Shown in pieces: positions 1,430-30,130 of a DNA stretch of 32,000 nt (position 1 is the stretch's first letter; each line of letters begins with the position of its first letter). A program made the position numbers and the translations under genes. Location of the stretch: NCBI RefSeq assembly GCF_036323395.1, contig NZ_AP028907.1, positions 629,588-661,587 on the forward strand, given 5' to 3'. The notes beneath the pieces were generated by a model. That model saw only the letters and a program-made list of their open reading frames with translations. It was not told where the DNA came from and ran no database searches. This stretch comes from Pyrodictium abyssi. GTDB lineage: Archaea > Thermoproteota > Thermoprotei_A > Sulfolobales > Pyrodictiaceae.

Positions 1430-1456
1430 AGCCAGGGAAGGAGGGGAGGTGGAGCC

Positions 1457-3203: not shown

Positions 3204-3209
3204 GGGGCC

Positions 3210-3929: not shown

Positions 3930-3951
3930 TCTGCATGGAGCCAGGGCAAGG

Positions 3952-6012
3952 GTGATCTCCGGGTTGAGGAGGATAGGGATAGACATAGGCGGTACCTTCA
4001 CGGACCTCGTGGCCTTCGACGACGAGACCGGCGAGCTGAGGAGCCTCAAGGTCCTGACGACGCCCCGGGAGCCCTGGCGGGGCTTCATGGAGGCTCTGCG
4101 GCAGCTAGGCTGGGACCTGGAGGGCGTCGAGGTAGTTATCCACGCGTCGACGCTTGGCACCAACCTGTTCCTAGGCCAGGTGGGGCTCGAGCCGCCGCCA
4201 GCAGTGCTAGTGGCCAACAAGGGGTTCCGCGACCTGCTGGAGATAGGGAGGCAGAACCGCCCGGAGCTATACAACCTGTTCTTCCAGCGCCCCCGGCCGC
4301 TCATCCCCCGGTCGCGGCGGCTCACCGTGGCCGGGAGGATCGGGCCCAGGGGAGAGGAGCTCGAGCCCCTCGACGAGGGGGCTGTCCGGCGGATAGCCCG
4401 GGAGTGGTGCAGCCGGGCCAAGGTATTCGTGGTAGTGTTCCTCCATAGCTACGCTAACCCGAGCCACGAGAAGCGCGCCAAGGAGATCATCGAGGAGGAG
4501 TGCCCCGGGGCCCTAGTGGTGGCGAGCCACGAGGTGGACCCGCAGCCGAAGGAGTACGAGCGCACCAGCACAGCAGTGGTCAACGCCCTGCTGAAGCCCG
4601 TGCTCTCCACCTACCTCTCCAGGGTCGCCGGGGAGCTCCGCTCAGCAGGATTCCGGGGCAAGCTCCTAGTCATGCAGAGTAGCGGCGGCGTAGCCGGAGT
4701 AGAGCAGGCCGTAGAGAGGCCAGCAGCCTTCATCGAGAGCGGCCCGGCGGCCGGCGCCGTGGCCGTAGCGTACTTCTCCAAGCTGATGGGTGTAGAGTAC
4801 GCCCTCGGCTTCGACATGGGCGGCACCACTGCTAAGGCCTCCGCTGTGGTGAACGGCGAGCCCCTAGTGGTCCCAGAGTACGAGGTGGGCGGCCGGGTCC
4901 ACATGGGGAGGCTGCTACGGGGCTCCGGGTACCCTGTCCGCTACCCCTACATAGACATAGCCGAGGTCAGCGCCGGTGGCGGCACGATAGCCTGGGTGGA
5001 CGCTGGGGGCGCGCTGCGGGTCGGCCCGGTGAGCGCTGGCGCCGACCCGGGCCCAGCCTGCTACGGCCGCGGAGGCCGCGAGCCCACGGTGACGGATGCG
5101 CAGCTCGTGCTGGGCAGGCTGCCCGAGGCCCTGGCCGGCGGGAGGATAAGGCTCCGCCGGGACCTCGCCCTGGAGGCCCTGGCGGGGCTAGCCGAGAAGC
5201 TGGGCATGGGGGTCGAGGAGGCCGCTGCCTCGATAATAAGGATAGCTAACACAGTCATGTCCAGGGCGCTGCGGCTCGTGACCATAGAGAGGGGGTACGA
5301 CCCCCGGCTCTTCGCGCTCTACGCCTACGGCGGCGCGGGGCCCCTCCACGCGGTGGAGCTCGCGGACGAGCTGGGAGCCAGGGAGGTCGTTGTCCCACCG
5401 CTGCCCGGCGTGTTCTCGGCGTTAGGCCTGCTCGTCACGGACTACCGCCACGACTTCCACGCCGCTGTTGTGCGGAGGGCCGACGAGCTAAGCGACGAGG
5501 AGCTCGAGAAGGTCTTCGCAGGGATGGCCGAGAAGGCCCTGGCGATGCTCCGCGACGAGGGCGTAGCCCCGGACCAGGCCCGGCTGGTACGCCGCCTAGA
5601 CATGAGGTATCAAGGGCAGGCGTACGAGCTGAGCGTGCCCTACCGCGGGAGCCTAGAGGAGGCCGTGAAGGAGTTCCACCGCCTACACGAGGCGAGGTAC
5701 GGGTTCAGCCTCCCCGACACCCCCGTGCAGGTGGTCAACGCGAGGCTCACAGCCTACGGAGTCGTGGCTAAGCCGAGGCTCCCCCAAGGGGAGCCGAGCC
5801 CCTACCGCCCGGAGCCCAGCGGCAGGAGGCGCGTCTACTTCGACGAGGCCGGGTGGACCATGACGCCGGTGTATAGGCGGGCCGAGCTACGCCCCGGCGC
5901 CGAGATCGAGGGCCCCGCAGTCATAGAGTCCGACGACAGCACCGTGCTCGTCCCCCCTGGCCATGTGGCCCGGGTAGACGGGCTCCACGCGGTCCACATA
6001 GAGAGGCTCTAG
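3952..6012 (+). CDS. hyuA: Hydantoinase/oxoprolinase family, A (beta) subunit (HyuA-like; N-methylhydantoinase A / 5-oxoprolinase / acetone carboxylase beta family)
   Basis: N-terminal IGIDIGGTFTDLV (ASKHA-type hydantoinase_A N-terminus) and a second ...GFDMGGTTAKAS motif. The ORF is open from GTG 3910, overlapping livF. GTG 3952 places the start about 8 codons before IGIDIGGT and is preferred, but the choice is uncertain. Confidence 0.85.
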   Translation: MISGLRRIGIDIGGTFTDLVAFDDETGELRSLKVLTTPREPWRGFMEALRQLGWDLEGVEVVIHASTLGTNLFLGQVGLEPPPAVLVANKGFRDLLEIGRQNRPELYNLFFQRPRPLIPRSRRLTVAGRIGPRGEELEPLDEGAVRRIAREWCSRAKVFVVVFLHSYANPSHEKRAKEIIEEECPGALVVASHEVDPQPKEYERTSTAVVNALLKPVLSTYLSRVAGELRSAGFRGKLLVMQSSGGVAGVEQAVERPAAFIESGPAAGAVAVAYFSKLMGVEYALGFDMGGTTAKASAVVNGEPLVVPEYEVGGRVHMGRLLRGSGYPVRYPYIDIAEVSAGGGTIAWVDAGGALRVGPVSAGADPGPACYGRGGREPTVTDAQLVLGRLPEALAGGRIRLRRDLALEALAGLAEKLGMGVEEAAASIIRIANTVMSRALRLVTIERGYDPRLFALYAYGGAGPLHAVELADELGAREVVVPPLPGVFSALGLLVTDYRHDFHAAVVRRADELSDEELEKVFAGMAEKALAMLRDEGVAPDQARLVRRLDMRYQGQAYELSVPYRGSLEEAVKEFHRLHEARYGFSLPDTPVQVVNARLTAYGVVAKPRLPQGEPSPYRPEPSGRRRVYFDEAGWTMTPVYRRAELRPGAEIEGPAVIESDDSTVLVPPGHVARVDGLHAVHIERL

Positions 6013-6028
6013 GAGGGCTGGGCACGCC

Positions 6029-7687
6029 ATGGTGGACAGGGTAACCATCGAGGTGATAAGGCACGCCGCTATCTTCACAGCCGAGGAGATGGGAGTAGTC
6101 CTGCGGAACACCGCGTTCAGCCCCAACATAAGGGACCGGCTCGACTACTCCTGCGCCATACTGGCCCCGAGCGGCGAGCTGGTGGCACAGGCCGAGCACA
6201 TACCGGTGCACCTAGGCAGCATGCCCATAGGAGTAAAGAACATGGTCAAGGCCCTGGAGGAGAACGGGGTCAGCCTAGGCCCCGGAGACGTCGCGGTCTC
6301 CAACGACCCCTACATAACCGGGACACACCTCAACGACGTCATGGTACTCAAGCCCGTCTACGTCGACGGAGAGCTAGTAGCCTACGTGGCCAACAAGGCC
6401 CACCACGTGGACGTCGGCGGCCTCGTGCCGGGCGGCATCGGAGCCGGTGTTAGGAGCCTACGCGAGGAAGGCCTAGTAATACCCCCGGTGAAGCTCGTCG
6501 AGGCAGGCAGGCTTAGAACCGACATAGTCAGGCTCCTAGAGGCCAACGTGAGGACGCCCCGGAGCCTCCGAGGCGACCTAATGGCCCAGCTGGCCGCCCT
6601 CAACACCGGGGAGAAGAGGATACGCGAGCTAGCCGAGCGCTACGGCGTAGACGCGCTGCTCGAGGCCTGGGAGGAGATACTCGGCTACACTGAGAAGTAC
6701 ACCCGTACACTCCTCCAGGGGCTCGTCGGGGACGGGGGCGGCGCATACGAGGCAGAGGACTACGTGGAGCTAGAGAGCGGCGAGCTGGCCAAGATACGGG
6801 TCCGGCTAGAGATAAGCCCCGAGCGCATAGTAGCCGACTTCACCGGGACGGACAGGCAGGTAGACGAGCCGCTCAACGCCGTCTACGGCGTCACCGTGGC
6901 CGCCACGACCTACGCGATAAAGGCAGTGATAGACCCCGACATGCCGATGAACAGCGGGTTCTACAGGGTCGTCGAGATACAGGCGCCCCGAGGGACGCTG
7001 GTCAACCCCGTACCCCCCGCGCCCGTCGGCGGCGGCAACGTGGAGACGTCGCAGAGAATAGCAGACGTCGTGCTACGCGCCCTAGCCGAGGCGTTCCCCG
7101 GCCGCGTGCCCGCCGCGAGCTGCGGCACCATGAGCAACCTGCTCCTAGGCGGCAAGGGATGGGCCTTCTACGAGACCATAGGCTGCGGCTCCGGCGCCCG
7201 GCCCTGCTGCGACGGCGTAGACGGGGTACACACCAACATGACCAACACGCTGAACACCCCGATAGAGGTGGCCGAGGCCGAGTACCCACTGCTCTTCCGC
7301 GCCTACGAGCTACGGCCAGACAGCGGCGGCCCCGGGCGCTGGCGGGGAGGCCTAGGCGTAGTCCGGGCGGTCACAGTGCTAGAGGACGGCGTCACCGTCA
7401 CAGTCTACGCTGAGCGCAGCCGGCTACGCCCCTGGGGGCTCGAGGGCGGAGAGCCGGGAGCCCCCTTCCGCAGCTACGTGGTGAAAGCCAGCGGCGAGCG
7501 GGTAGAGCTACCAGCCAAGGCCACGGTGAGGCTGAGCCGCGGCGACACAGTCTACATCGAGACACCGGGCGGAGGAGGCTACGGCAGTCCCTGCGAGAGG
7601 CCCCGGGACCAGCTAGAGCACGACGTAGAGGACGGCAAGGTCTCCCCCGAGGCTGCCAGGCGCTACTGCCAGCCGGGCAGCCGCTAG
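6029..7687 (+). CDS. hyuB: Hydantoinase/oxoprolinase family, B (alpha) subunit (HyuB-like)
   Basis: 552 aa. Motifs ...SNDPYITGTHLNDV... and C-terminal ...GGGGYGSP... are typical of Hydantoinase_B. Immediately follows hyuA. Confidence 0.85.
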   Translation: MVDRVTIEVIRHAAIFTAEEMGVVLRNTAFSPNIRDRLDYSCAILAPSGELVAQAEHIPVHLGSMPIGVKNMVKALEENGVSLGPGDVAVSNDPYITGTHLNDVMVLKPVYVDGELVAYVANKAHHVDVGGLVPGGIGAGVRSLREEGLVIPPVKLVEAGRLRTDIVRLLEANVRTPRSLRGDLMAQLAALNTGEKRIRELAERYGVDALLEAWEEILGYTEKYTRTLLQGLVGDGGGAYEAEDYVELESGELAKIRVRLEISPERIVADFTGTDRQVDEPLNAVYGVTVAATTYAIKAVIDPDMPMNSGFYRVVEIQAPRGTLVNPVPPAPVGGGNVETSQRIADVVLRALAEAFPGRVPAASCGTMSNLLLGGKGWAFYETIGCGSGARPCCDGVDGVHTNMTNTLNTPIEVAEAEYPLLFRAYELRPDSGGPGRWRGGLGVVRAVTVLEDGVTVTVYAERSRLRPWGLEGGEPGAPFRSYVVKASGERVELPAKATVRLSRGDTVYIETPGGGGYGSPCERPRDQLEHDVEDGKVSPEAARRYCQPGSR

Positions 7688-7989
7688 GCAGCCCCCTAGC
7701 CGCTTTCGCCCCGGCGCTCCACGGGGCTTACCCGGTCCCTCCCCGTCCTCGTCAACATCTGCTCCTCCTCGACGCGTCTCCGCGCAGAAGCGCACATGCA
7801 GCACCATGTCGCCGGTTGTGGCAGGTTGCGTGGCAGGCCCTGGGGGCTGCTATGGCCAGGGCCGAGCACCGCTACGAGGAACAGTCAGCGGAGTATGCAT
7901 GACTACCCCTCATTGCTTCATCGGATGAGAAGCTTGGCCGGTGGCCCAGAGGGCTCTGCTCGGGGACCAGCGTCCTACCGCTAGCGCGT

Positions 7990-8391: not shown

Positions 8392-9435
8392 CTAGTCCAG
8401 TGCATCCCAGCCAGTCGTCTCCTCCACCACCCGGCGGAACGCCTTTATCGTCTTGACGGGCTCCGGGTCCAGCCCCGCGTCCAGCGCGTAGCGGACAGAG
8501 GCCAGGCCCGCCAGCCAGGTGCCCCACACCATCCGGGAGAGCATACTGCCGCCACGTAGCCTGGCGACGTGCAGGCTCGCCGGCCGGGCCAGCCCCGCAG
8601 CCTGGTGCAGCAGCGTACTCCAGGGCTCCTCCCCGGGGTCGAGCAGGAGGATCCTCGTGTCGCCGCTCCGGGCCCACGCCTCCAGCATGTTGTGGCCCGC
8701 CTCCGGCACCTGGGCCGCGTCCGCCGTAAGCTTAGCGTTCTCAGCGAGCTCGCTCCTCGTGCGGACCGCCACCGGGTAGTAGGGCTCCGGCGCGAGCACT
8801 ACCAGGCTGCCCCTGCTCCCCTGGAGCCACTCGGCCAGCTCCCTCGCCTCCGCCTCGGCCCTCTCACGCTCGCCGAGGAGCTGGATAGACTCCTCCACGT
8901 GGCCGCCAGGGACCTGGATAAGCCCCGCGGCCTTCAGGCTGCCGAGGAGCGTGTAGAAGAGCTGGGGCCACCCCGCCCGCGGGGCAGGAGCCTCCTCGAC
9001 AACAGCCACGGGCACGCCTACGCGCCGCGCCCACGCGGCGAGACGCCCGCCAGTAGTCACCGCCACGACGTAGCCGCCTAGCCGGTAGGCCCGGGAGGCA
9101 CAGTTCAGCGTCTCCCGCGTATTCCCCGAGAAGCTCACAGCGTAGACCAGGCAGCCCCGCACCCACCTCGGGGGCTCAGCCGACTTGACCACGTAGACCG
9201 GGAGCCCGCCATAAGCCGCCGACAACGCCGCCAGATAGTCGCCCGCAGCACCGCTACCACCCATGCCACACACCACGACACAATCGGCCCGCGAGTAGCC
9301 GCTCGGCAGCTCCAGCGCCAGGCCCGCCGCGTAGGCCCGCCGGGCAGGCCCAGCCCAGCCCAGGTAATACCCGTAGAACTCCCCGCGCGCCACAGCACAT
9401 GCACCCCAGGGCACCGTGCTAGAGACGCGCCACAC
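8392..9435 (-). CDS. pgi: Bifunctional phosphoglucose/phosphomannose isomerase (SIS-domain, crenarchaeal PGI/PMI type)
   Basis: 347 aa with SIS motifs VVCGMGGSGAAGDYL and AVSFSGNTRETL. Size and layout match the archaeal PGI/PMI family. The GTG start lies 1 nt after the stop of the upstream gene. Confidence 0.75.
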   Translation of the reverse strand: MWRVSSTVPWGACAVARGEFYGYYLGWAGPARRAYAAGLALELPSGYSRADCVVVCGMGGSGAAGDYLAALSAAYGGLPVYVVKSAEPPRWVRGCLVYAVSFSGNTRETLNCASRAYRLGGYVVAVTTGGRLAAWARRVGVPVAVVEEAPAPRAGWPQLFYTLLGSLKAAGLIQVPGGHVEESIQLLGERERAEAEARELAEWLQGSRGSLVVLAPEPYYPVAVRTRSELAENAKLTADAAQVPEAGHNMLEAWARSGDTRILLLDPGEEPWSTLLHQAAGLARPASLHVARLRGGSMLSRMVWGTWLAGLASVRYALDAGLDPEPVKTIKAFRRVVEETTGWDALD

Positions 9436-9436
9436 C

Positions 9437-9745
9437 CTATAGCCGGAGCCTCCGCTTCAGAGCCTCCAGCGCCTCCCCGTGCTCCCGGCTCCACCCACCC
9501 TTCCTCTCCTTCTCGCCCAGCTTCTCGGCTATCCTGTCCCGCTCGAGGGCCGGCAGCGCCCCGGTTAGCGCCCGCCACGCCTGGAGCGCCTTACCCGCAG
9601 CACTCCTCGTAAAGCCCCGGCCGAGGAACCTCAGCGCCAGCAAAGCCTCCAACAGCGCCTCCAGGACACGGGCAGAAGCATAGCCCACTAGGCTCCTCTC
9701 CGGCTTGGGAAGAGGACGCTCCAAGAACTCCACGCCTACAGCCAT
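9437..9745 (-). CDS. PaREP1-family (HEPN-like) small protein, 102 aa
   Basis: Internal ATG at 9745 of the artefactual 355-aa ORF. The motif FTRSAAGKALQAWRALTGAL matches the PaREP1 core (N-A-A-G-K-A-F-Q-A-W-K-A). A TATA-like box lies about 37 nt upstream. Confidence 0.55.
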   Translation of the reverse strand: MAVGVEFLERPLPKPERSLVGYASARVLEALLEALLALRFLGRGFTRSAAGKALQAWRALTGALPALERDRIAEKLGEKERKGGWSREHGEALEALKRRLRL

Positions 9746-9776
9746 CCCGCACCCCTGGTATAGGCGGCGCCACAAC

Positions 9777-9786
9777 GCTATATACC
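9777..9786 (-). promoter_or_regulatory. TATA-like box for the PaREP1-like/pgi transcription unit
   Basis: The + strand gctatatacc reads GGTATATAGC on the - strand, 32-41 nt upstream of the ATG at 9745. Confidence 0.4.
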
Positions 9787-9910
9787 GTAGCCCCGGCCCC
9801 GCTGCACGCGCCAAGGCACCGGGAGTGAGACGGCACCGGACTGTGGAGGTACAGCAGAAGGGGGCACACCGTGGACCGTCAGAGGCCAGAGATAGGGGAG
9901 GGCTCTGCGG

Positions 9911-9987
9911 TGGTGGGCCCGGGGGGATTCGAACCCCCGACCTCCCGGTTATCAGCCGGGCGCTCCGCCGGGCTGAGCTACGGGCCC
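9911..9987 (-). tRNA. tRNA-Ile(GAU): tRNA-Ile, anticodon GAU, CCA encoded
   Basis: Manual fold of the reverse complement: acceptor GGGCCCG/CGGGCCC, D stem GCTC/GAGC, anticodon stem CCCGG/CCGGG with loop CT-GAT-AA, variable AGGTC, T arm GGGGG-TTCGAAT-CCCCC, discriminator A, CCA. Total 77 nt. Confidence 0.93.
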
Positions 9988-10016
9988 GCCCCGAGAGGCA
10001 AGGGACAATGCCCCGG

Positions 10017-10028
10017 GGATATTTCAGC
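10017..10028 (-). promoter_or_regulatory. TATA-like box for tRNA-Ile
   Basis: The + strand ggatatttcagc reads GCTGAAATATCC on the - strand, centred about 35 nt upstream of the tRNA 5' end. Confidence 0.35.
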
Positions 10029-10177
10029 ACTACGCCCAGGACCCAGAGGTCAGCCACAGCTCCAACACCGCCCAAAGGGGGACCCGCAGGAGCCGCAGGC
10101 ATGGTGGGCCGCGGGTGGAGGAGGAGAGGCCAAAAGAGCCAGAGTAGAGGGGCGGGGGCGCGCCCTCGCCCTCCCGA

Positions 10178-11275
10178 GCTCGTCCACTCTACGCTGAAGC
10201 CCACCACTACCAGCACAGTGTCGAGGAGCACGCCCTCCCCGGCCTCGTAGTACGCGGTCACACCGTAGTAGGCCGCTGTAGCGTTCTCGAAGCGCCACGC
10301 CTCCTCATCCACGGTTATAGTGTCCTCTGGCTGCAGCCAGCCACTAGGCTTGTCAAAGCCCACCCGGGCAACCTCCTGCCCAAGCACCAGGACATCGTAG
10401 CCGGCCACTATGGCCTCGTTGACGTACAATGTAGCCGAAGGTGGATGGAATATGTAGGCCAGCGTTATGTTAAAGAGCCAGTTGCCGTCCTCGTCCATGA
10501 ACACTAGTGTTACAGTGACGTTAGTCGCGCGGGTTATCCCGTCGCTTATCGTATTCCGCTATAATCCAGGACTGGGTATGGTTCAGAAAGCTATCATACA
10601 CATAGATGTCAGCAGGCCTATCGTCGTAGCCTACTACTAGAGATAGTTATTGTCACCGGTGTGAGCGTTGGACAGCTTTACCGTAATGCCGAATCATACC
10701 ACCACTCGACAAGCCTGTCAGAGACGTTCTTGTACACGTACTCTTGTCCGTTACTCTCGTTGCGTATAACAAGGTATATCTTTGCAACCTTGTTTACGAG
10801 TTCTTGCACTATACTGTAAGCTGTATAACCTAGCTCTGGCAGGCCCTGCGACTCCACACTACTTCTTATCGCATTCTCAATCCCTTCAATCTTAGTTTCA
10901 TTGCGGATTTGGTATACAGGCTGATTATTAGGGAACTCCCCAGACTTTTTCACTCGTGTATGTGCCTTTGCCCTCGAATTCTGCTGCTTCTCTTATTATT
11001 AGTATCAGGTAGCGGAAGTACTGTTTTAGCTCTTCGGCGTTCTCTAGCTTCACCTTAAACCACGGGTTCACAGAGACCATACCCTGGGCGTCGGAGGCAG
11101 CGCCTATGGCTAGCGGTTTCACGACCTCAAAGTGCACCGGCTCTTCCCGGGCACCCGCTAGGCCAAGGGCATAGAAGACACCAGGTGTGCCCGTGAGCAC
11201 TGCTGCAAAGCCTGCTAGCAGGGCGAGGGCGGCAGCCGAGGCCATAACGCCAGCAACGGGCGGGAGCATGACCAA
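10178..11275 (-). pseudogene. Decayed paralogue of the secreted Can-like family, closest to the 389-aa member
   Basis: Homology to 24913-26082 runs through at least four frames. These are 11275-10928 (signal peptide to ...YFRYLILIIREA), 10953-10678 (...VEWWYDS), about 10650-10550 (...YDSFLNHTQSWIIAEY) and 10560-10178 (...ISDGITRATNVTVTLVFMDEDGNW...YYEAGEGVLLD...VEWTS). The family's terminal TS-TAG reads TS-TCG here, so the frame runs on through the tRNA. Confidence 0.8.
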
Positions 11276-11423: not shown

Positions 11424-11948
11424 TTAGCTGACGCTTAGCACCTGGAAGTTGAGGATCACTGGTAGGCTGTCGAACAGCATACCCTCCTTGGCCTCGTAGT
11501 AGGCTTCAACCTTTAGCTGTATCTTGTTAGTGCTACTGTAGTCGTCGTTGTCTAGTATTATGACTGCGCTGGGCTTCTTGAGGCTTAGCACAGCCTTGGT
11601 CTCCTCAACAGTACTAGAGGCATTGCTTGTGAGTACTAGCTGTAGGTACTTGAAGTATGGCCTTAGCTGGGCAGCATTGGCTAGAGTCACCTTTAGCTTT
11701 ACTACGTTCACGTCAGTATAGTTTATTATTTTTACGTAGCCCATATCCTTGTAGCCCTGTGCGCCAGCAGCAGGAGCTATGGTGTTGTCTAGGTGGCTCT
11801 CTACGTCTATTGGCTCTTGCACTGCTTGTGCTGTGCCGGTGGCGTAGAAGCTGTTGAGCGGGCTCTGGGTGGTGGCGAAGCCAGCTAGCAGGGCGAGGGC
11901 GGCAGCCGAGGCGATGATACCCGCTATAGCTAGGGTTGTGTACCTCAT
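11424..11948 (-). CDS. Secreted filament-subunit candidate, Can-like family (174 aa; cannula CanA/B/C-like by architecture)
   Basis: Signal-peptide-like MRYTTLAIAGIIASAAALALLAGFATT, then SPLNSFYATGTA, APAAGAQG, LANAAQLRPYFKYLQL, and a C-terminal YYEAKEGMLFDSLPVILNFQVLSVS-stop. Sequons NYT and NAS are present. The start at ATG 11948 is chosen by alignment with the paralogue; the ORF is also open to ATG 11960. Confidence 0.8.
   Translation of the reverse strand: MRYTTLAIAGIIASAAALALLAGFATTQSPLNSFYATGTAQAVQEPIDVESHLDNTIAPAAGAQGYKDMGYVKIINYTDVNVVKLKVTLANAAQLRPYFKYLQLVLTSNASSTVEETKAVLSLKKPSAVIILDNDDYSSTNKIQLKVEAYYEAKEGMLFDSLPVILNFQVLSVS
11830..11948. repeat. Copy 1 of a 119-bp near-identical segment covering the 5' end of Can-like genes
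   Basis: 116/119 identical to 22053-22171. Differences are g/a at position 6, a/t at position 53, and ATG versus GTG at the start codon. Confidence 0.95.
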
Positions 11949-13403: not shown

Positions 13404-13412
13404 CTTATATAG
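13404..13412. promoter_or_regulatory. TATA-like element in the divergent intergenic region
   Basis: cttatatag is near-palindromic and lies between the divergent Can-like fusion gene (start 13301) and the ATPase gene (ORF from 13531). It could serve either direction. Confidence 0.3.
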
Positions 13413-13530
13413 TCCTGGCCAGGGCCAATGTACCCTAGGACCGGTACTCTAGACACCGCCATGGAGCCAAGCATAGCCGTGGCTGTCCTAGCCCCGGCCT
13501 CCGGGGCTTCCTCGAGGCCCCTGCTGAGAG

Positions 13531-14688
13531 GTGCCTGGCATGCGGCTACCGCTACCGCTGCCCCGGCGTATCAAGATACGGCGCGAGCCCCGGCTAGCAG
13601 ACATCTGGATCATGCAGCGCTGGCCTATTGAGTCGCTCGACGCCTGCAAGATGGCGGACCCCCCGTTCGCCGACATAAACGGCGTGGGCGCTGTGCTGGA
13701 GAGGCTCGTGGACCAGGTCGTGGCGGGGCGGGGCGGCATATACATAATAGTCGGGGCCCCGGGCTCCGGCAAGTCCACGCTCCTCAAGACCCTGCATAAC
13801 CGGCTCCGCCGGGGCGGTATATACTCCCTCTACATGGATACCGCTGGGCGGAGCCTCGACGACTTCGTGGCTAGCCTCTGCTCTATCCTCGGCTGCCGCG
13901 AGGTCTCGCTCGACTCGCTCATGGAGAGGATACGCGAGAAAGCCGCGGAAGAGGGCACCATGGCCCTGCTCCTGGACGACATCGACCGCATATCCGGGGG
14001 CAACATGGACGATGTGGGCAAGCTGCTTACGGGCCTCACTGCTGTCCAGCGGGAGATCGGCCGCGGGCTCTTCATAGCCTTCAGCATGGCCCGTGAGAGC
14101 CTGGCAAGGCTCACCCTAGACCCCCTGATGAGGGGCCTCGTCAAGTCCTACATGGAGGTTATAGACCTTGACGAGCACCTCGTGAACTCCCCCACCGATC
14201 TCTCCAGGCTCCTCTACGCCCACTTCGAGCGGGCCCGGCCGCCCAACCCAGACCCCAAGGCCGCTGCTATACTCAACCGGTACCCGCTCCACCCTATCCG
14301 CGACCAGAACGTCATAAACATGCTCTACGAGATACTCGGCACAGATACGCCGCGCATGTACCTCGAGAAGGTGGACGAGCTGCTAAGGATAGCCATACGC
14401 GCCCGCTCACGCGTCGTGAGCATAGCACACCTAAACATACTAGCGAGGAGGCTCATCCAGGCCCGGCGCGAGGCTGTGCCCATTACCCAGATACAGGTCA
14501 TGCTGGTCCGCCGCTACGTGAACGGCCTGATAGCCGGCGGCCTCGTAGTGCTAGGCACAGTTGCCATAACCCTGGCGGCGATAAACCTAGTCCCGCCGGG
14601 CCTCAAGCTGCCCTACGTAGTGGTCGGCCTAGTGCTGATGCTCGCCGGTATACTGGTGCACATGAGGTCCATAGCTAGGCCGGGCTGA
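13531..14688 (+). CDS. Membrane-anchored P-loop NTPase (AAA_22/ORC-like ATPase domain plus two C-terminal TM helices)
   Basis: Walker A IIVGAPGSGKSTLLKTL and Walker B MALLLDDIDRI. The C-terminus has two hydrophobic helices, LIAGGLVVLGTVAITLAAINLV and PYVVVGLVLMLAGILVHM. The true start may be ATG 13612 or ATG 13651. Confidence 0.7.
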   Translation: MPGMRLPLPLPRRIKIRREPRLADIWIMQRWPIESLDACKMADPPFADINGVGAVLERLVDQVVAGRGGIYIIVGAPGSGKSTLLKTLHNRLRRGGIYSLYMDTAGRSLDDFVASLCSILGCREVSLDSLMERIREKAAEEGTMALLLDDIDRISGGNMDDVGKLLTGLTAVQREIGRGLFIAFSMARESLARLTLDPLMRGLVKSYMEVIDLDEHLVNSPTDLSRLLYAHFERARPPNPDPKAAAILNRYPLHPIRDQNVINMLYEILGTDTPRMYLEKVDELLRIAIRARSRVVSIAHLNILARRLIQARREAVPITQIQVMLVRRYVNGLIAGGLVVLGTVAITLAAINLVPPGLKLPYVVVGLVLMLAGILVHMRSIARPG

Positions 14689-14750
14689 GCAGCCGGGGCC
14701 CTATTTACGGGCCAGCCCATGCTAGATAGAACCGTGTCCGGGGGTCTGCT

Positions 14751-15332
14751 GTGAGCGAGTACCTCAACGTAGTGGTACCGGAGGAGAGGGGCGGTATACC
14801 CCCCGCCCTGGTGGCGCTGGTAGCGCTAGCAGCCATAGTGGCCGCTGGGCTCAGCGTCTCTGGGCAGCTGCCGCGCTTCGCCGTCATCCAGACGACGAGT
14901 ATGGTCCCTACACTGGTTCCGGGAGACGTGGTGATGATAACGAAGGTTGACCCGATGTCGATCGATGTCGGCGACGTGATAGCCTTCAACCTTGTAGCCT
15001 ACGAGGTGGACGAGCAGGGGCGGCCCATCGACATGAAGGGCATCAAGATAACAGTGCACCGCGTGATAGAGAGGAAGATGATCAACGGCCGGCTCTACTT
15101 CCGCACCCAGGGCGATAACAACCCCGTGCCAGACCCCTGGCTCGTACCCGCCTCGGGCGTGCTGGGCAAGGCGGAGAAGGTTGCTAGCCTAGGCACCTTT
15201 GGCCTGGTACTGACCAACCCCATAGGCAGGGTGTTCGTGATAATGATAATGCTGTCGTCACTAGTCCTGCTGGGCAGCACTATGTGGAGCTATAGTAAGG
15301 GTATACGCGAGGATCTTGAGAACTACCTCTAG
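14751..15332 (+). CDS. Type I signal peptidase, archaeal/ER (Sec11/SipW-like, Ser-His) type
   Basis: Catalytic-Ser box IQTTSMVPTLVPGDVVMI, His box TVHRVIER and FRTQGDNNPVPDP box. N- and C-terminal TM helices are present. GTG start. Confidence 0.85.
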   Translation: MSEYLNVVVPEERGGIPPALVALVALAAIVAAGLSVSGQLPRFAVIQTTSMVPTLVPGDVVMITKVDPMSIDVGDVIAFNLVAYEVDEQGRPIDMKGIKITVHRVIERKMINGRLYFRTQGDNNPVPDPWLVPASGVLGKAEKVASLGTFGLVLTNPIGRVFVIMIMLSSLVLLGSTMWSYSKGIREDLENYL

Positions 15333-15454: not shown

Positions 15455-15895
15455 CTAGCCTGTGCTGCTGTCTTGCGTGTCCTCTAGGAAGGGCTTGCAG
15501 AGTGTCAGGTTCTCGGCTATGGTCTGGTTTAGGCTGTAGAGGGTCTTGCAGAGGTTCTCTAGCTCTTCGCCGCTCATGGTTACCTTGACGCCGTTTATCT
15601 CTAGGACTACGTTGCCGTCGCCGCCGCGGTAGAGGTTTATGGCGATGTTGTTGGAGCGGTTTACCAGCTCCACTATATCCTGGTGTATTTCGCGGACTAG
15701 CGTCTCGTTGAGAGTGCCCCTGGAGAGGGCAGTGGCGACCTTGGTGAGGTCCTGGCCCACCTGGTTAACGACAGTTGTGGCGTACTCGGCTATAGCCGTT
15801 ACCATGGCCATCGCCACGACGAAGGTCAGCAGGCCCGACAGCATAGCCTCCTTTAGCACCCGGTTCACCGTCTCTAGATACCCACCGTAAGGCAT
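15455..15895 (-). CDS. Small N-terminally anchored protein with conserved Cys pair, paralogue 1 (146 aa)
   Basis: TM helix LSGLLTFVVAMAMVTAIAEYA. The C-terminal ...EELENLCKTLYSLNQTIAENLTLCKPFLED aligns with 16817-17197, sharing C-x16-C and an NLT sequon. Confidence 0.65.
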   Translation of the reverse strand: MPYGGYLETVNRVLKEAMLSGLLTFVVAMAMVTAIAEYATTVVNQVGQDLTKVATALSRGTLNETLVREIHQDIVELVNRSNNIAINLYRGGDGNVVLEINGVKVTMSGEELENLCKTLYSLNQTIAENLTLCKPFLEDTQDSSTG

Positions 15896-16816: not shown

Positions 16817-17197
16817 CTAGCCGGCCAGCCCCTCGGACGTTATAACGTCTCTGCAGGGGGTCAGGTTGAGCGCGAGCCCGGGGTCGACGGCGTAGAGGGA
16901 CCAGCAGAAGAGCCTCAGCTGGGTCTCGTTGAGCACGAGCCTCTCGCCGCCGACGTAGACCGGGGTGCCGTTCAGCGCCTCCACGGCGCCCCGCAGGGCC
17001 GCCTCCTCCAAGTCGGCGAGGTCGCGCTGCAGCCTATCGAGGAGGCTCCAATCGGGCTCCCCCTCGGCCACGGCCTCGACCACGGCCATGAGGTCGGGCA
17101 GGACGCGGTCCACCAGGATACCCGCCACAAGCAGCGACGCGGCCAGGAGGGCTAGCGCGGGGGCGGCAGCCAGGGCTCCGCTGGCCACAGGGAGCAC
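16817..17197 (-). CDS. Small N-terminally anchored protein with conserved Cys pair, paralogue 2 (126 aa)
   Basis: Hydrophobic N-terminus ALAAAPALALLAASLLVAGILV. The C-terminal ...TQLRLFCWSLYAVDPGLALNLTPCRDVITS aligns with 15455-15895. Confidence 0.6.
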   Translation of the reverse strand: MLPVASGALAAAPALALLAASLLVAGILVDRVLPDLMAVVEAVAEGEPDWSLLDRLQRDLADLEEAALRGAVEALNGTPVYVGGERLVLNETQLRLFCWSLYAVDPGLALNLTPCRDVITSEGLAG

Positions 17198-17429: not shown

Positions 17430-20400
17430 TCAGCCAGCCCCGGCGCGGGGGCCCGCGTAGTCGTCGCCGGCGGCCGGGGGGGCGGCTGTGGTGGCTGTGG
17501 CGTTCGCGGGGGTCACGTTGCCCGGTGCCGTGACGTTGGCTGGGGCTAGCTGGGCGCCCGGCCCCGCGGCTAGTACGCCGCTAGCACGGGCCAGTGTGAA
17601 GGACTCTCGGGCGCCGTCGGGCACGGCGCGCAGTACTGCCTCGTAGCTGGCCGTCGCGTTGCCCCTCAGCTGTATCTTCACCCTCATGGAGGCTATGTCG
17701 CCGGGCCGTAGCGCGTCAACCCTCATGACCGCCATGCTGGTGGTGTAGCTGCCCGGCTCGGCGTCGAGCACCTCTACCCCGCTGGGGAACTTTACGCTGA
17801 CAACCACGTTCCTGAGGTCTATCGAGTCCAGGTTCGCGGCGCTGACCTCTACTATGGCGCGGTCCCGGTACCTCTCCACCTCCTTGACCTCGAGGGCCAC
17901 GTGGGGCACCTTCACCCTCACCGGGACCGTGGCCAGCGTGTTGCCGTCGAGCCTGAGCACTATGTAGACCGTTGTCTCGCTCCCCAGCGGCGCGCCGGGG
18001 GAGACGTGTAGCGTAGCCCACCTGGTGGTGAACTCTCCGGGCTCAAGGTCCGCCCGCGTCGCCGGCAGGAAGAGCCTGGCTATCGAGTCGTTGCCGTTGA
18101 CCGGGACTATCTCCGCGCCCTCTATCCTCATACCAGAGGCCACGTCTATCCTCACGTCCACCTCGCTCCCGGGCGGCGCCGCGACGTAGCCCGGCGTCAC
18201 AGTGACCTCCACTGTGCGGCGGAGGAGCTCTAGCACTGGTATCCTGGCTACACGGTACTCCTTGATCAGGTACTGGCCGGTCTCGTCGTAGACCAGGAGC
18301 CTTGCGTCAAGCGTGTCCAGGGGCTCCAGCTTGACGGTGTCGAGGTTTACGCTTATGTCGAGCGTGCGGTGGCTCCGAGCCGGGAGCGCCACCGTCTCGG
18401 CGTAGTCGTATATCGTGCACGCCTTCACGTCGACGCAGTCGCCCTGCCCCTTGACGAGCACAAGCCGCGCTAGGAACACGGCGTCGCGGTCCTCTGGGTT
18501 GTAGAAGGACAAGCTTATGGTAAGCCCTCTCCTCGCTATGTCTACCTCCACGTCCTCTAGCCGGGGCTCCACCATGACGGAGCGTAGCTCCACGCCACTG
18601 GTGCTTGTTGCTATAACTTTGCCGTTCGGGTCGAGCACGTGTATGCTCATAGTGTAGACGCCGGGGTAGGCGGTCGGCGGCACCGGTATGTTGACCACGA
18701 AGCTAGCGCTGCCGCCCAGGGGCACCAGCTCCTCCCCGGACTCGGCCTCGCCCAGACCCTCTATCGAGACCCTGACCCTGAGCCGGGCGTCAGTGTTACC
18801 CGTGTTAGCCACCTTAACCTCTACGCGGAAGCTCTTACCCACCACCGGGAGGTCTAGCACACGCACCTCCTCCACGGTGGCAGAGACCACTGGCTCCACT
18901 GTCAGCAGGTTGTGGAGGCTCCAGGAGGCGTAGGGCATCCCCGCTATGTAGAGGACTGCGCGGGCGTCGTAGCTCCCTGCCGCGGCGTCGCCCGGGACCT
19001 GTATGGGGACCTGGACCAGGTTAATGCCGGGGAAGAGTGGCTCCTCAACGCTGTAGCTCCGGCCGAGCAGCTGTACCTCCAGCCGGCTCTGGACTGAGCC
19101 CTCGCCGTCCAGCCGGAGCTTCACCGAGACCAGGGCCTGGCCGCCGGGCTTCACGCTCCCCGGCGACGCGCTGTAGTCCTCCAGGGATATGCTGTACGAG
19201 ACTACCTCTAGCGCGGCCTCGGCGCGGGAGGCCTCGTAGAGGTCGTCGCCCCTGAACTCCACGGCGAGGCTGTGCCTGCCCACGCCGAGCCACGAGGTGT
19301 CGAACTCAACCACTGCCACGCCGTCTCGGCCGGTGCGGGCGCTGCCCACGAGCTTCCCGTCTACGTAGAAGCTCAGGGTGCGGCCCACGAGCGGGCCCCC
19401 GGAGACCCCGTCAACCAGCCTGGCCTCGACGTGGGCGAGGCTGCCGCGCGACACCACGAAGCTCTGAGCCTCTATCTTGCTCGGCCTCTTCAGCACCTCG
19501 ACTGTCTTGCTCTTGACGCCGGTTAGCCCCGTGTCGTCCACGACTGTGAGCGTGACGTTGTAGACACCGGGCTTCTCGAACACGTGGGTAACTATCGCGC
19601 CCTCGGCCACCGTGCCGTCGCCGAACTCCCAGCGGTACCCAGTGATGTTGCCGTCGGGGTCGTAGGAGAGGAGCCCGTAGAACGTGACGTTGACGCCCCA
19701 GTAGGGCTGCCGCGGCGAGAACCAGAACCCAGCGACCGGGGGCCTGCCCTCGACGCACCAGACCGGGCGCGAATCCAGCCAAGGCTCGTAGTACTGCCTG
19801 GGGTTAGGCCGCCCCTCAAGCCACGGCATCACTATAGGGCTGCCCTTGCCCTCCGGGTTGCCCGTAGCCCGGGGGCCCGAGGGGTCACCCCACCAGTTGT
19901 GCCCCGCGTAGACGTAGCCCTCCTCAACCTTCAGCCCGTACTCGGCGCCCTCCAGGCAGCTGTAGCTCACCACCGCGGTAGAGTCCACAACACTCTTCAC
20001 GTAGACCGCCTGGGGGCCCGAGACCCGGGAGTAGAGCACCTCTAGCCTCGCCCTGCCACCCACGCCGCCCTTCTCGCCGTCAATAATCAGGCTCTCCAGC
20101 TGGCACCTATAGATCCTCATCACGGTGGACTGGCCGTAGAGGCCCCAGTCCTCGCGCACCCAGTTATCCGCAATGCTCTCGCCCCGGACCAGAACCCTCC
20201 CCATAACGGTGTTGCTCGCAACAAGACTCGACTGGTCCAGGCCGCGGCCCGAGGAGGTGCCGTTGTAGAGCCCATAGCCGTGGATAGTGAGGCCCTCCAG
20301 CGTGGAGTCTGTGATGCTCATCCACGAGGATAGCAGCCCCTCAGGCCCCTCTACCACTACGCTGCCCAGCCTCACACGCTCCAGCACCAGGCTACTACGG

Positions 20401-21212
20401 AACAGCGCTGCGCCCTCCCCCGCGTAGCTCCGGTCTACCACCACGGAGAGCCCGGAGAACACGGAGTCGCTGATGCTTATCCGGGACTCGTAGACACCAT
20501 ACATGACCGCCGGCACTAGCTTGTAGCTCGTGACGGTGACAGTCGTGTTGCCGGTAGTGATGTTGTAGCGGATGGGCACCTTCACCTGCAGCCCGGTGGC
20601 GTAGGAGTGCACCACGAACTCCCCCGTGGCGTTGACGCGGCTCAAAGTTATCTCGGACTGGTACACCGCGCTAGTCTCGTTGCCCAGGCCCAGCGACTCC
20701 ACCCTAAAGTCGCCCACAATGGTCACGTTGTCCAGCGCCACCGTGGAGTTGTAGACGCTCCGGTAGGCCGCCTTGAAGGACAGCCCGCCACGTATAACAG
20801 AGTCCGTAAACGTCACGTTGGACTCCGTGAGCCCTGTAAACTCCAGGCCATCCTCGACAACAACGTTCTTGAACACCAGGACCGAGCCCGTCACAACAAG
20901 CGTGCCGCGCCCCACCAGTGTTACCGGGCTCCCCGGCTTACCCTCGGCAAGGATCACGCCACGGTCAACCGTGACCGTGACGCCGGGCGCGAATATCAGG
21001 ACAACACCGTCCTCTATCCGGACCTCGGCCTTAATCCGGATATCCCTCGTGATTATGTACGGGCTCCCCTCACGAGTCAACACAGTATTGACTATGATAT
21101 CGCGGTCGATAGGCGTAGGGCTCGCCTCAGCCCCCGCCGCGCCCCACACCCAGCCCGCCAGAGACACAAGGTACAGTACAAGGAGTATGGACACCAGTAG
21201 CCGCCTATACAA
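17430..21212 (-). CDS. Giant secreted surface protein: signal peptide, right-handed beta-helix region, PKD domain, multiple Ig/CARDB-like domains (1260 aa as encoded)
   Basis: Signal-like MYRRLLVSILLVLYLVSLAGWVWGAAGA. Repetitive beta-helix-type segments span aa 35-445 and end in HNWWGDPSGP. The PKD motif YRWEFGDGT...HVFEKPGVYNVTLTVVDDTG spans about 19494-19742. CARDB-like FRVEVKVANTGNTDA is present, with many N-x-S/T sequons and a C-terminal NVT/NAT/Thr-Pro tract. Confidence 0.85.
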   Translation of the reverse strand: MYRRLLVSILLVLYLVSLAGWVWGAAGAEASPTPIDRDIIVNTVLTREGSPYIITRDIRIKAEVRIEDGVVLIFAPGVTVTVDRGVILAEGKPGSPVTLVGRGTLVVTGSVLVFKNVVVEDGLEFTGLTESNVTFTDSVIRGGLSFKAAYRSVYNSTVALDNVTIVGDFRVESLGLGNETSAVYQSEITLSRVNATGEFVVHSYATGLQVKVPIRYNITTGNTTVTVTSYKLVPAVMYGVYESRISISDSVFSGLSVVVDRSYAGEGAALFRSSLVLERVRLGSVVVEGPEGLLSSWMSITDSTLEGLTIHGYGLYNGTSSGRGLDQSSLVASNTVMGRVLVRGESIADNWVREDWGLYGQSTVMRIYRCQLESLIIDGEKGGVGGRARLEVLYSRVSGPQAVYVKSVVDSTAVVSYSCLEGAEYGLKVEEGYVYAGHNWWGDPSGPRATGNPEGKGSPIVMPWLEGRPNPRQYYEPWLDSRPVWCVEGRPPVAGFWFSPRQPYWGVNVTFYGLLSYDPDGNITGYRWEFGDGTVAEGAIVTHVFEKPGVYNVTLTVVDDTGLTGVKSKTVEVLKRPSKIEAQSFVVSRGSLAHVEARLVDGVSGGPLVGRTLSFYVDGKLVGSARTGRDGVAVVEFDTSWLGVGRHSLAVEFRGDDLYEASRAEAALEVVSYSISLEDYSASPGSVKPGGQALVSVKLRLDGEGSVQSRLEVQLLGRSYSVEEPLFPGINLVQVPIQVPGDAAAGSYDARAVLYIAGMPYASWSLHNLLTVEPVVSATVEEVRVLDLPVVGKSFRVEVKVANTGNTDARLRVRVSIEGLGEAESGEELVPLGGSASFVVNIPVPPTAYPGVYTMSIHVLDPNGKVIATSTSGVELRSVMVEPRLEDVEVDIARRGLTISLSFYNPEDRDAVFLARLVLVKGQGDCVDVKACTIYDYAETVALPARSHRTLDISVNLDTVKLEPLDTLDARLLVYDETGQYLIKEYRVARIPVLELLRRTVEVTVTPGYVAAPPGSEVDVRIDVASGMRIEGAEIVPVNGNDSIARLFLPATRADLEPGEFTTRWATLHVSPGAPLGSETTVYIVLRLDGNTLATVPVRVKVPHVALEVKEVERYRDRAIVEVSAANLDSIDLRNVVVSVKFPSGVEVLDAEPGSYTTSMAVMRVDALRPGDIASMRVKIQLRGNATASYEAVLRAVPDGARESFTLARASGVLAAGPGAQLAPANVTAPGNVTPANATATTAAPPAAGDDYAGPRAGAG

Positions 21213-21478: not shown

Positions 21479-22171
21479 TTAGCCTACCTGCAGTACCTGG
21501 AAGTTGAGTATTACTGGTAGGCTGTCGAATAGCATGCCCTCCCTAGCCTCATAGAAGGCCTTGACCGTTAGTACAGCGAATGTAGCGTCATTGCCCATGC
21601 CATTGAATACGCCACTCTTAGTTATCTGCCAGCTGCCAGTTGCGTTGCCTATTTCTATCTTATCGCTGGGTGAACCTGGTACCCAGAATGTTACGTTTGC
21701 TGGTATGCTTGCAGCTGTCTCGTTCAGCTTAGCAATATTGAACAAGTCTTCAGCGTCAAGTATTATTACGGCTTTAGGCTTCTGTAGGGAGAGGACAGCT
21801 TTGATCTCTGAGTAGTTGCCTATAGCGGACTCGTTTGTGTTGAAGGCGCTTGTTATCTGTAGCTGTAGGTACTTGAAGTATGGCCTTAGCTGTGCGGCAT
21901 TGGCTATTTTTACTAGGAGCTTTACGTCGTTTACGTCGGCGCGTACTGGCACTAGCACAAAGCCCATGTCCTCGCTGCCCTGGGCGCCGGCGGCGGGGGC
22001 TATGTTGGTGTTGAGCTTGCTCACTACGTCTATTGGCTCGCTTACCGCCTCTGCTGTACCGGTGGCGTAGAAGCTGTTGAGCGGGCTCTGGGTGGTGGCG
22101 AAGCCTGCTAGCAGGGCGAGGGCGGCAGCCGAGGCGATGATACCCGCTATAGCTAGGGTTGTGTACCTCAC
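21479..22171 (-). CDS. Secreted filament-subunit candidate, Can-like family (230 aa)
   Basis: GTG start. The first 40 aa are identical to the 174-aa paralogue. Motifs APAAGAQG, IANAAQLRPYFKYLQL and a C-terminal FYEAREGMLFDSLPVILNFQVLQVG-stop are present. Five sequons: NES, NYS, NET, NVT, NAT. Confidence 0.85.
   Translation of the reverse strand: MRYTTLAIAGIIASAAALALLAGFATTQSPLNSFYATGTAEAVSEPIDVVSKLNTNIAPAAGAQGSEDMGFVLVPVRADVNDVKLLVKIANAAQLRPYFKYLQLQITSAFNTNESAIGNYSEIKAVLSLQKPKAVIILDAEDLFNIAKLNETAASIPANVTFWVPGSPSDKIEIGNATGSWQITKSGVFNGMGNDATFAVLTVKAFYEAREGMLFDSLPVILNFQVLQVG
22053..22171. repeat. Copy 2 of the 119-bp near-identical 5' gene segment
   Basis: See 11830-11948. Confidence 0.95.
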
Positions 22172-28960: not shown

Positions 28961-29060
28961 GCTACGGCGATACTATTTAACGCTTCCATACCACTGTATC
29001 GAGCACGACAGAAAGCTCTAGAGGACGGTGGAACAGTGTAGCCGGGGCATAGCCCCGGGG

Positions 29061-30104: not shown

Positions 30105-30130
30105 GGGGCGCCGCTCCTCCCTCCGCGGGC

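Follow-up and report, generated by a model that had tools for sequence, protein, structure and literature searches.

A membrane-anchored AAA+ ATPase and a signal peptidase I encoded beside the cannula genes of Pyrodictium abyssi

The subject of this analysis is a pair of adjacent genes in the archaeal lineage Pyrodictiaceae, encoding a membrane-anchored AAA+ ATPase and a type I signal peptidase, which in Pyrodictium abyssi come immediately after the canX operon and are read from the other strand. They were found in a window of 32,000 nucleotides (nt), by which we mean the whole stretch of DNA that was analysed (contig NZ_AP028907.1, positions 629,588 to 661,587). CanX was identified by Sleutel et al. 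(Nat Commun 2025, PMC12518558), using cryo-electron microscopy, as the subunit of ex vivo cannulae. Its gene (WP_338251948.1, 174 amino acids (aa), 11424-11948, − strand), the product of which is the presumed main substrate of the peptidase, lies two genes from the pair, and is followed by the gene for a 398-aa Can-like protein (WP_338251950.1, 12105-13301, −), from which the pair is transcribed divergently. The ATPase (WP_338251952.1, 382 aa, 13540-14688, +) carries the RefSeq name ‘ATP-binding protein’, and the peptidase (WP_338251954.1, 193 aa, 14751-15332, +), which is of the endoplasmic reticulum (ER)/archaeal type, is named ‘signal peptidase I’; all four proteins were assigned by exact-sequence look-up. 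On the far side of canX is a 115-aa Can-like open reading frame (ORF; 10928-11275, −), which carries the leader shared by these proteins and is probably WP_338251946.1; WP_338251946.1, CanX and WP_338251950.1 are regarded as one operon in PMC12518558.

The ATPase and the signal peptidase

Annotations of the ATPase start differ, with GenBank (BES81125) giving a 385-aa protein that begins at GTG 13531 and RefSeq the 382-aa protein that begins at ATG 13540. A Shine–Dalgarno-like motif, GAGGTG, is present at 13528-13533 (+), 6 nt before the ATG, and both the motif and its spacing are kept in Pyrodictium occultum; because GTG 13531 falls within this conserved motif, ATG 13540 is most likely the start of the protein. 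It is this change of start that leads us to give the spacer between the 398-aa Can-like gene and the ATPase gene as 229-238 nt. The sole AT-rich element of the spacer is the TATA-like CTTATATAG (13404-13412), which has a symmetric TATATA core and is a candidate for a promoter element that is shared or bidirectional. It lies within an island of ten bases, CTTATATAGT, in which P. abyssi and P. occultum do not differ, the remaining spacer aligning poorly. We looked between the ATPase and peptidase genes, and past the peptidase gene, for a T-run terminator or a separate promoter, and found nothing clear at either place.

The ATPase matches the Pfam families AAA_22 (PF13401, 5e-13) and AAA_16 (2e-10), and its nucleotide-binding motifs were compared in an alignment of six lineages. 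In the Walker A motif or P-loop, GAPGSGKST (13753-13779, +), residues G72, G75, G77, K78 and T80 are invariant, while in the Walker B motif, LLLDDID (13966-13986, +), D146 alone is invariant and the residue which follows is D or N in the family. The lid motif, TPRMY (14347-14361, +), has P271, R272 and Y274 invariant, and R272 is a candidate sensor-2 arginine, as judged by eye from an alignment to the GDAR motif of Cdc6. Together with R233, R272 is invariant in the lid, and the alignment contains no invariant arginine at the canonical finger position. The AlphaFold2 (AF2) model of the protein (predicted local distance difference test (pLDDT) 82, predicted template modelling score (pTM) 0.71) comprises an alpha/beta core with a helical lid, then a linker helix and a hairpin of two helices (residues 316-347 and 353-379). 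A C-terminal transmembrane (TM) hairpin, covering residues ~326-379 (14515-14676, +), is seen in the hydropathy of five lineages, in the AF2 helices and in invariant alignment columns; its first helix contains the invariant glycines G329-x3-G333 and G339, and the loop that reaches the outside has only a few residues. The nucleotide-binding part of the protein is wholly cytoplasmic, and only the hairpin lies within the membrane.

With its Walker A P-loop, alpha/beta core and helical lid, the protein is an AAA+ ATPase, the core of which is nearest to the initiator/switch-type clade. A profile search against PDB sequences gave S. solfataricus Cdc6-1 as the best match (2qby_A, E = 1.8e-11, AAA core only), and Foldseek returned ORC1/Cdc6 (7jgr_A, 2qby_A), MuB and TnsC, then FtsH and PAN, at E values of 1e-7 to 1e-6. 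The likeness to Orc1/Cdc6 proteins extends over the AAA+ core, the lid and the lid motif G..(T/A)PR.Y; unlike those proteins, the ATPase has no winged helix and is anchored in the membrane, and its genetic linkage is with secretion genes, not replication origins. There is no Cdc6_C or winged-helix match for the protein among the Pfam matches listed, and because the winged helix is absent, with a conserved TM hairpin at the C-terminus instead, membership of the Orc1/Cdc6 family was rejected. No conserved aromatic residue resembling a pore loop was identified from the alignment and the structure matches. With D or N standing where a Walker B glutamate would be expected, and no invariant finger arginine, the ATPase would suit the role of a nucleotide switch better than that of a processive motor.

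The peptidase scores above the cutoff of the NCBIfam model for archaeal signal peptidase I, TIGR02228 (77.7 bits, cutoff 51.85), and above that of Pfam Peptidase_S26 (23.8, cutoff 22.9). In an alignment of 30 sequences, the catalytic Ser50 and the neighbouring M51 are invariant in box B, SMVPTL (14898-14915, +), as are the catalytic His103 and R104 in box D, HRV (15057-15065, +), where the presence of His in place of Lys is the mark of the ER/archaeal type. Box E, GDNNPVPD (15111-15134, +), which contributes D122 and D128, is likewise conserved, with G121, D122, N124 and D128 invariant. Hydropathy gives an N-terminal TM helix, an extracytoplasmic catalytic domain and a C-terminal TM helix. The AF2 model (pLDDT 88.7) is matched best by human SEC11A/C in Foldseek (7p2p_A and 7p2q_A, E = 1e-4, with 26% identity to 7p2p_A). 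We assign the protein to the archaeal/ER-type signal peptidase I group (MEROPS S26B) and, its motifs being intact, predict it to be catalytic. Against the SipW equivalog model, NF046067, it scored 34.5 bits, which is below the cutoff of 190; orthology to SipW was rejected on this score, leaving at most a SipW-like way of working.

Much of this agrees with an earlier, sequence-only reading of the window, in which an ATPase with Walker A and Walker B motifs and two C-terminal TM helices was described, followed 62 nt downstream by a signal peptidase I with Ser/His boxes, the two being divergent from the 398-aa Can-like gene across about 230 nt containing a TATA-like element. The motifs and helices of the ATPase stand on sequence, hydropathy and the AF2 model, the peptidase start at 14751 is indeed 62 nt past the ATPase stop codon, and the spacer and its element are as described above; the 385-aa length and the GTG start given there for the ATPase are most likely mistaken.

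In a neighbour-joining tree that included 24 other archaeal signal peptidases, the eight peptidases known to be linked to an ATPase of this type formed one clade. Members share the motif T(T/K/S)SM(V/I)PTL.PGD where other peptidases have SGSM.PTL, and KV.SLG.(F/L)GL where the others have IPYLG(W/Y), and they possess an insertion between boxes C and D. A peptidase that falls just outside the clade, P0019 (at locus L006), has neither the ATPase nor a Can-like gene as a neighbour. The cytoplasmic tails of the clade differ as well. At the N-terminus (14751-14790 in the window) the tail is acidic, e.g. VPEERG, compared to a basic tail in generic archaeal peptidases, and at the C-terminus (15291-15332 in the window) it is conserved within each subclade, resembling DLENYL in the GC-rich lineages and R-(I/V)-(I/V)-V in those that are AT-rich. 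The ATPase might make contact with the peptidase at these tails.

Gene context and distribution in other lineages

We searched exhaustively for the ATPase family, by profile, among 1.84 billion representative proteins, a word-index homologue search with the ATPase having returned proteins of P. abyssi and P. occultum only. The family is tiny, comprising about six clusters, beyond which generic P-loop matches appear at E values of 1e-6 and weaker. Its members are P0002 from P. occultum (71% identity), P0026 (35-36%), P0027-P0029 (25-27%) and one fragment. All of them have the N-terminal segment W.L..(W/L)P.E..DA..V.DPPFADI.G, the Walker A motif, a Walker B motif of the form hhhhD(D/N), the lid motifs NPLHP and TPR.Y, and two C-terminal TM helices, and none has a winged helix. 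The TM region is a feature of the whole family. The sequence-only reading would have been undermined by a well-known ATPase family whose members have no TM region; the core is indeed ORC/Cdc6-like, yet every family member has the TM hairpin, and for this reason we have set that objection aside. Sequence patterns were also used to look for further loci: the Pyrodictium-type ATPase pattern gave no match in a collection of genome contigs, where the Pyrodictium loci are apparently masked or absent, and a pattern for the AT-rich subfamily gave no match in JGI metagenomes, while a second pattern scan of the genome contigs yielded a single locus, L007.

Gene context was recovered for seven relatives, making eight lineages with P. 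abyssi, and seven of the eight have enough flanking DNA for the presence of a Can-like gene to be assessed. The immediate neighbour of the ATPase is the peptidase in all eight lineages, and a Can-like gene lies no more than one gene away from the pair in all seven that are informative. This three-way linkage of ATPase, peptidase and Can-like gene occurs in four distinct gene arrangements and over a GC content that ranges from 38 to 67%. The nearest context is that of P. occultum (L001-L003), where a 414-aa orthologue of the 398-aa Can-like protein (43% identity) is encoded divergently from the ATPase and then the peptidase (71%). In a metagenome locus of 61% GC (L004/L005) the ATPase (42%) is followed by the peptidase (49%), and the contig is too short beyond. 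The NCBI metagenome-assembled genome (MAG) GCA_054016755.1 (L012/L013) encodes, in order, the peptidase, the ATPase, a 382-aa Can-like protein, a 397-aa protein, and Can-like proteins of 198 and 170 aa. At L007, from a GTDB MAG titled ‘uncultured Thermoproteaceae archaeon’ (40% GC), a 714-aa secreted protein, a 319-aa anchored protein and a 238-aa Can-like protein precede the ATPase, to which the peptidase gene is convergent, and at L008-L010 a Can-like gene is again followed by the ATPase gene, convergent with that of the peptidase. The Can-like gene is instead followed by the peptidase gene, convergent with the ATPase gene, in the NCBI MAG GCA_054043325.1 (L011) and at L014/L015, where GlnRS, PCNA and other housekeeping genes flank the trio.

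Pairwise identities of the ATPases and of the peptidases are congruent, with P. abyssi and P. occultum, L007 and L008, and L011 and L014 grouping together in both. Only the peptidase and Can-like genes recur as neighbours; neither a transposase or defence partner nor an ExeB/GspB-like partner recurs in the eight contexts. Co-occurrence of the pair with Can-like genes across archaea, which was suggested as a check by the sequence-only reading, therefore holds in every informative lineage, and the objection that the pair might be found beside unrelated genes in relatives is answered by the divergently adjacent orthologue in P. occultum and by five further lineages in which the Can-like gene is at most one gene away.

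The Can-like nature of these neighbours was assessed by phmmer, which matched CanX to neighbours in P. occultum (5e-24), L011 (6e-19) and L007 (2e-5), and by a Can profile which, although built in part from those phmmer-matched sequences, also matches the independent neighbours at L014 (2e-51), L012 (4e-43) and L008 (7e-40). At the stringent threshold used in PMC12518558, homologues of CanX were confined to Pyrodictiaceae. Judged by these profile matches, Can-like genes with the pair reach beyond that family, to the MAG labelled Thermoproteaceae and several AT-rich lineages.

Can-like leaders and neighbouring genes

The window contains five Can-like genes, all on the − strand, of which the 115-aa ORF is by far the shortest. 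Two lie outside the canX operon, and both encode presumed substrates of the peptidase: a 230-aa paralogue of CanX (21479-22171, −) and a 389-aa protein with the shared leader (24913-26082, −). The 230-aa protein is 56% identical to CanX and its leader is identical to that of CanX, which suggests a recent duplication. In every lineage, the leaders of Can-like proteins have a hydrophobic core ending in (A/P)(G/A/V)(F/Y/L/V)(A/S), with (F/Y)Y(A/V)(T/P)G following 8-12 residues on. The leader motif SAAALALLAGFATT, which the sequence-only reading took to be shared, occurs in four of the window's five Can-like genes. Cleavage of CanX past ...AGFA (residue 25) is predicted to leave a mature protein of 149 aa, which agrees with the range of 140-160 aa given in PMC12518558 and with the removal of a 25-residue leader from CanA.

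The 398-aa Can-like protein begins with a Can-type leader and an N-terminal Can domain, followed by a long Thr-rich linker (residues ~200-270) and a Cys-rich C-terminal domain, and is possibly a minor, anchor or tip subunit. Its Cys-rich domain is kept in P. occultum (6e-31), where a weak second match to the Can profile is found. Among the AT-rich lineages, a protein of 306-319 aa with a C-terminal TM anchor is encoded before the Can-like gene (L007 7944-8903 and L008 12988-13908, which are homologous), and L007 additionally encodes, at 5788-7932, the 714-aa secreted protein, which has a Can-type leader and a Ser/Thr-rich linker; the anchored protein of L007 and L008 and the 714-aa protein are possible anchor or tip components.

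Several other genes lie close to the pair. Paralogous small proteins of 146 aa (15455-15895, −) and 126 aa (16817-17197, −), each anchored in the membrane at its N-terminus and having two conserved Cys residues, are encoded on either side of a DUF2204 nucleotidyltransferase gene. The 146-aa gene is convergent to that of the peptidase, its orthologue in P. occultum (L001 11812-12219) occupies the same place, and no homologues of the 146- and 126-aa proteins were found in the lineages other than P. occultum. Further on is a gene (17430-21212, −) for a 1260-aa secreted protein with PKD, Big_3_5 and DUF11 domains, which is syntenic in P. occultum with 68% identity and has a signal peptide unlike the Can-type leader; beyond the peptidase, P. 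occultum thus retains orthologues of the 146-aa small protein, the DUF2204 protein and the large PKD protein. On the other side of the canX operon, a 355-aa ORF (9437-10504, −) carries a PaREP1 domain at its C-terminus (1e-7) and matches the Can profile weakly (2e-6, about 50 residues). The flanks of the window (542-7687, 8392-9435 and 27224-30922) contain ordinary metabolic genes unrelated to the pair, among them those for a branched-chain amino acid ABC transporter, hydantoinase A and B, a phosphoglucose-isomerase-like SIS protein, an AMP-binding enzyme and a VWA protein.

Possible roles in cannula biogenesis

Cannula subunits polymerise by insertion of their N-terminal strand into a neighbouring subunit, and mature recombinant subunits do so spontaneously with calcium; deletion of the first 10 residues of the mature N-terminus of CanA, which form part of the putative donor strand, abolished polymerisation. 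Sleutel et al. concluded that cannula assembly is chaperone-free, and stated that Can gene neighbourhoods lack dedicated signal peptidases (PMC12518558). Taking the gene linkage together with these properties, we propose that the ATPase and the peptidase probably form a two-gene accessory module of the cannula filament system, the subunits of which are of the Can family and TasA superfamily. Can subunits would be exported via Sec with their family-specific leader, and the peptidase, with its catalytic domain outside the membrane, would cut that leader as SipW does for TasA. For as long as the leader is attached, the donor strand would be tied to the membrane, and cleavage would free it and so license assembly; removal of the leader is seen as the licensing step because the donor strand is formed by the N-terminus of the mature protein and, given calcium, mature subunits self-assemble. 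The ATPase would be the membrane partner of the peptidase, with the glycine-faced (GxxxG-type) hairpin as its only part in the membrane, and would act as a nucleotide-dependent switch or scaffold that sets the place and time of Can processing and thereby the site of cannula nucleation, e.g. at division. It is from the linkage of the genes that we infer cleavage of Can leaders by the peptidase, its interaction with the ATPase, and a role for ATP binding or hydrolysis.

Dedicated peptidases have precedents among related filaments, being known in the case of SipW for TasA and proposed for AbpX and TafE. In Bacillus subtilis (tapA-sipW-tasA) and in the AbpX and TafE systems, an ER-type Ser/His peptidase is likewise encoded beside donor-strand filament subunits of the TasA superfamily, and cleavage yields the mature, polymerising protein, as may by analogy be the case for Can. 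The peptidase of the window differs from SipW in forming its own clade and in failing the SipW equivalog model, and every one of its type is accompanied by a membrane-anchored AAA+ ATPase, for which the published descriptions of the TasA, AbpX and Tafi loci give no counterpart. We found no paper that mentions the WP accessions of the pair, or an AAA+ ATPase partnering a signal peptidase in TasA-like loci. What is seen here is a SipW-like arrangement with a probably dedicated peptidase, together with a novel and very rare AAA+ membrane partner, in a system which was reported to be without either.

The proposed combination of a catalytic peptidase with a membrane-spanning accessory protein that has a cytoplasmic domain resembles two other arrangements, i.e. 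the eukaryotic signal peptidase complex, in which SEC11 has a fold common to the window peptidase, and some AbpX/Tafi loci, which encode a DUF5305 ‘SPase I accessory’ protein with two TM helices plus an alpha/beta domain in the cytoplasm. The window ATPase has no homology to SPC12, SPC25, SPC22/23 or DUF5305 among the Pfam matches listed, and is an AAA+ NTPase without an extracytoplasmic domain. A peptidase-fold protein of a filament locus is needed for polymerisation in Streptococcus pyogenes, where the SipA/LepA-type protein (4n31_B) is the third-best structural match to the window peptidase; SipA, however, has no catalytic residues and is chaperone-like for sortase pili, whereas the window peptidase retains Ser, His and Asp.

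The GspA/ExeA proteins, to which the sequence-only reading compared the ATPase, similarly consist of a cytoplasmic AAA_22 ATPase followed by a membrane anchor, and have a genetic tie to an envelope structure. ExeA, which has one TM helix and a peptidoglycan-binding domain in the periplasm, acts together with ExeB, ExeAB being the pair that assists secretin assembly in type II secretion. The window ATPase has instead a TM hairpin with a few-residue outside loop, no periplasmic domain, and a peptidase as its partner rather than ExeB. The order of domain and anchor is shared, but membership of the GspA/ExeA group was rejected since the extracytoplasmic domain is absent, and the likeness is one of analogy only.

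Several points weigh against the proposal of an accessory module. Recombinant mature CanA, Hyper2 and CanX-like proteins assemble in vitro without any factor, so the module is not required for the chemistry of polymerisation. The end of the Can leader, being small-x-small, also obeys the ordinary rule for signal peptidase I, and several of the 15 Can-like genes of P. abyssi are distant from the single ATPase–peptidase pair. The role of the ATPase is the weakest link, as a protein with DD or DN in place of a conserved Walker B glutamate, and without an obviously conserved arginine finger, may bind ATP rather than turn it over. Finally, the peptidase of the window, with its two TM helices, could double as the general peptidase of P. 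abyssi, because the sole other copy known there, from the literature, is a 10-TM enzyme linked to AbpX. This second TIGR02228 peptidase, WP_338249487.1, adjoins abpX and is called dedicated to AbpX by its authors; its existence also means that the genome has more than one signal peptidase I, whereas a sole copy would have spoken against the sequence-only reading.

One alternative is that the peptidase is simply the housekeeping signal peptidase I and the ATPase a lineage-specific accessory of general secretion, their linkage reflecting the abundance of Can proteins among secreted substrates. A compact, two-TM peptidase of ordinary archaeal type would fit such a role, particularly beside an unusual 10-TM enzyme given over to AbpX, as would leaders that follow the ordinary cleavage rule and the position of the L014 trio amid housekeeping genes; no other named Pyrodictium signal peptidase, and no third P. 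abyssi copy, was seen among the best 120 of 735 profile matches. A general enzyme would, however, be expected in Pyrodictium delaneyi, which has no CanX homologues (PMC12518558), and likewise in cannula-less Hyperthermus and Pyrolobus, and for these no named relative of the peptidase was present among 17 single-sequence matches or the best 120 of the 735. The peptidase clade and the ATPase family are, moreover, very rare in archaea and found only with Can-like genes, an adjacency that persists through four rearrangements, and we regard a housekeeping role as unlikely. The ATPase might otherwise be an export or targeting motor that moves Can precursors through Sec post-translationally, taking the place of SecA for these particular substrates, with the peptidase acting downstream. 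Archaea are without SecA and no substitute has been identified (review PMC6098224), the ATPase domain is cytoplasmic, tethered to the membrane and linked to Sec substrates and their peptidase, and growth of cannulae requires a large flux of one small protein. Yet the core is closest to the switch-type AAA+ proteins ORC/Cdc6, MuB and TnsC rather than to the unfoldase or translocase clades, the non-conserved Walker B glutamate and the want of a pore-loop-like aromatic do not fit a motor, and a single small hairpin provides no channel, so that such a motor seems improbable to us.

That the ATPase is beside the Can-like genes by accident, as an ORC/Cdc6 paralogue, a transposition helper of the TniB/TnsC/MuB type or a STAND-like defence NTPase, has in its favour the match of the AAA core to Cdc6-1, the Foldseek matches to ORC1, MuB and TnsC, and weak PADLOC and STAND-type matches. 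The PADLOC matches reach no better than E 1e-5 and extend over the P-loop region alone, no winged-helix or other DNA-binding domain accompanies the TM hairpin that every member possesses, and the eight contexts hold no recurrent transposase or defence partner; the transposition-helper and defence assignments were rejected on these grounds, and an incidental adjacency is barely credible. A more ambitious form of our own proposal is that the pair is the core of an unrecognised, energy-coupled biogenesis machine for archaeal donor-strand filaments, in which the AAA+ protein would either drive the targeting or export of Can precursors through Sec at the expense of ATP, as a substrate-specific replacement for SecA, or form a ring-shaped platform where peptidases are brought together and the 25-nm tube is nucleated, at a defined site, during division. 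We think this quite unlikely, but, if true, the assembly of cannulae in vivo would not be ‘chaperone-free’.

The accessory module remains the explanation that we favour. Cannulae are a classic unexplained archaeal structure, the subunit structure of which was solved only in 2025, and a peptidase of their own would align them with the TasA, AbpX and Tafi filaments, which have theirs, while an ATPase partner is unprecedented for a prokaryotic signal peptidase I. The pair would provide the first concrete candidates for cellular control over the place and time at which these self-assembling tubes begin.

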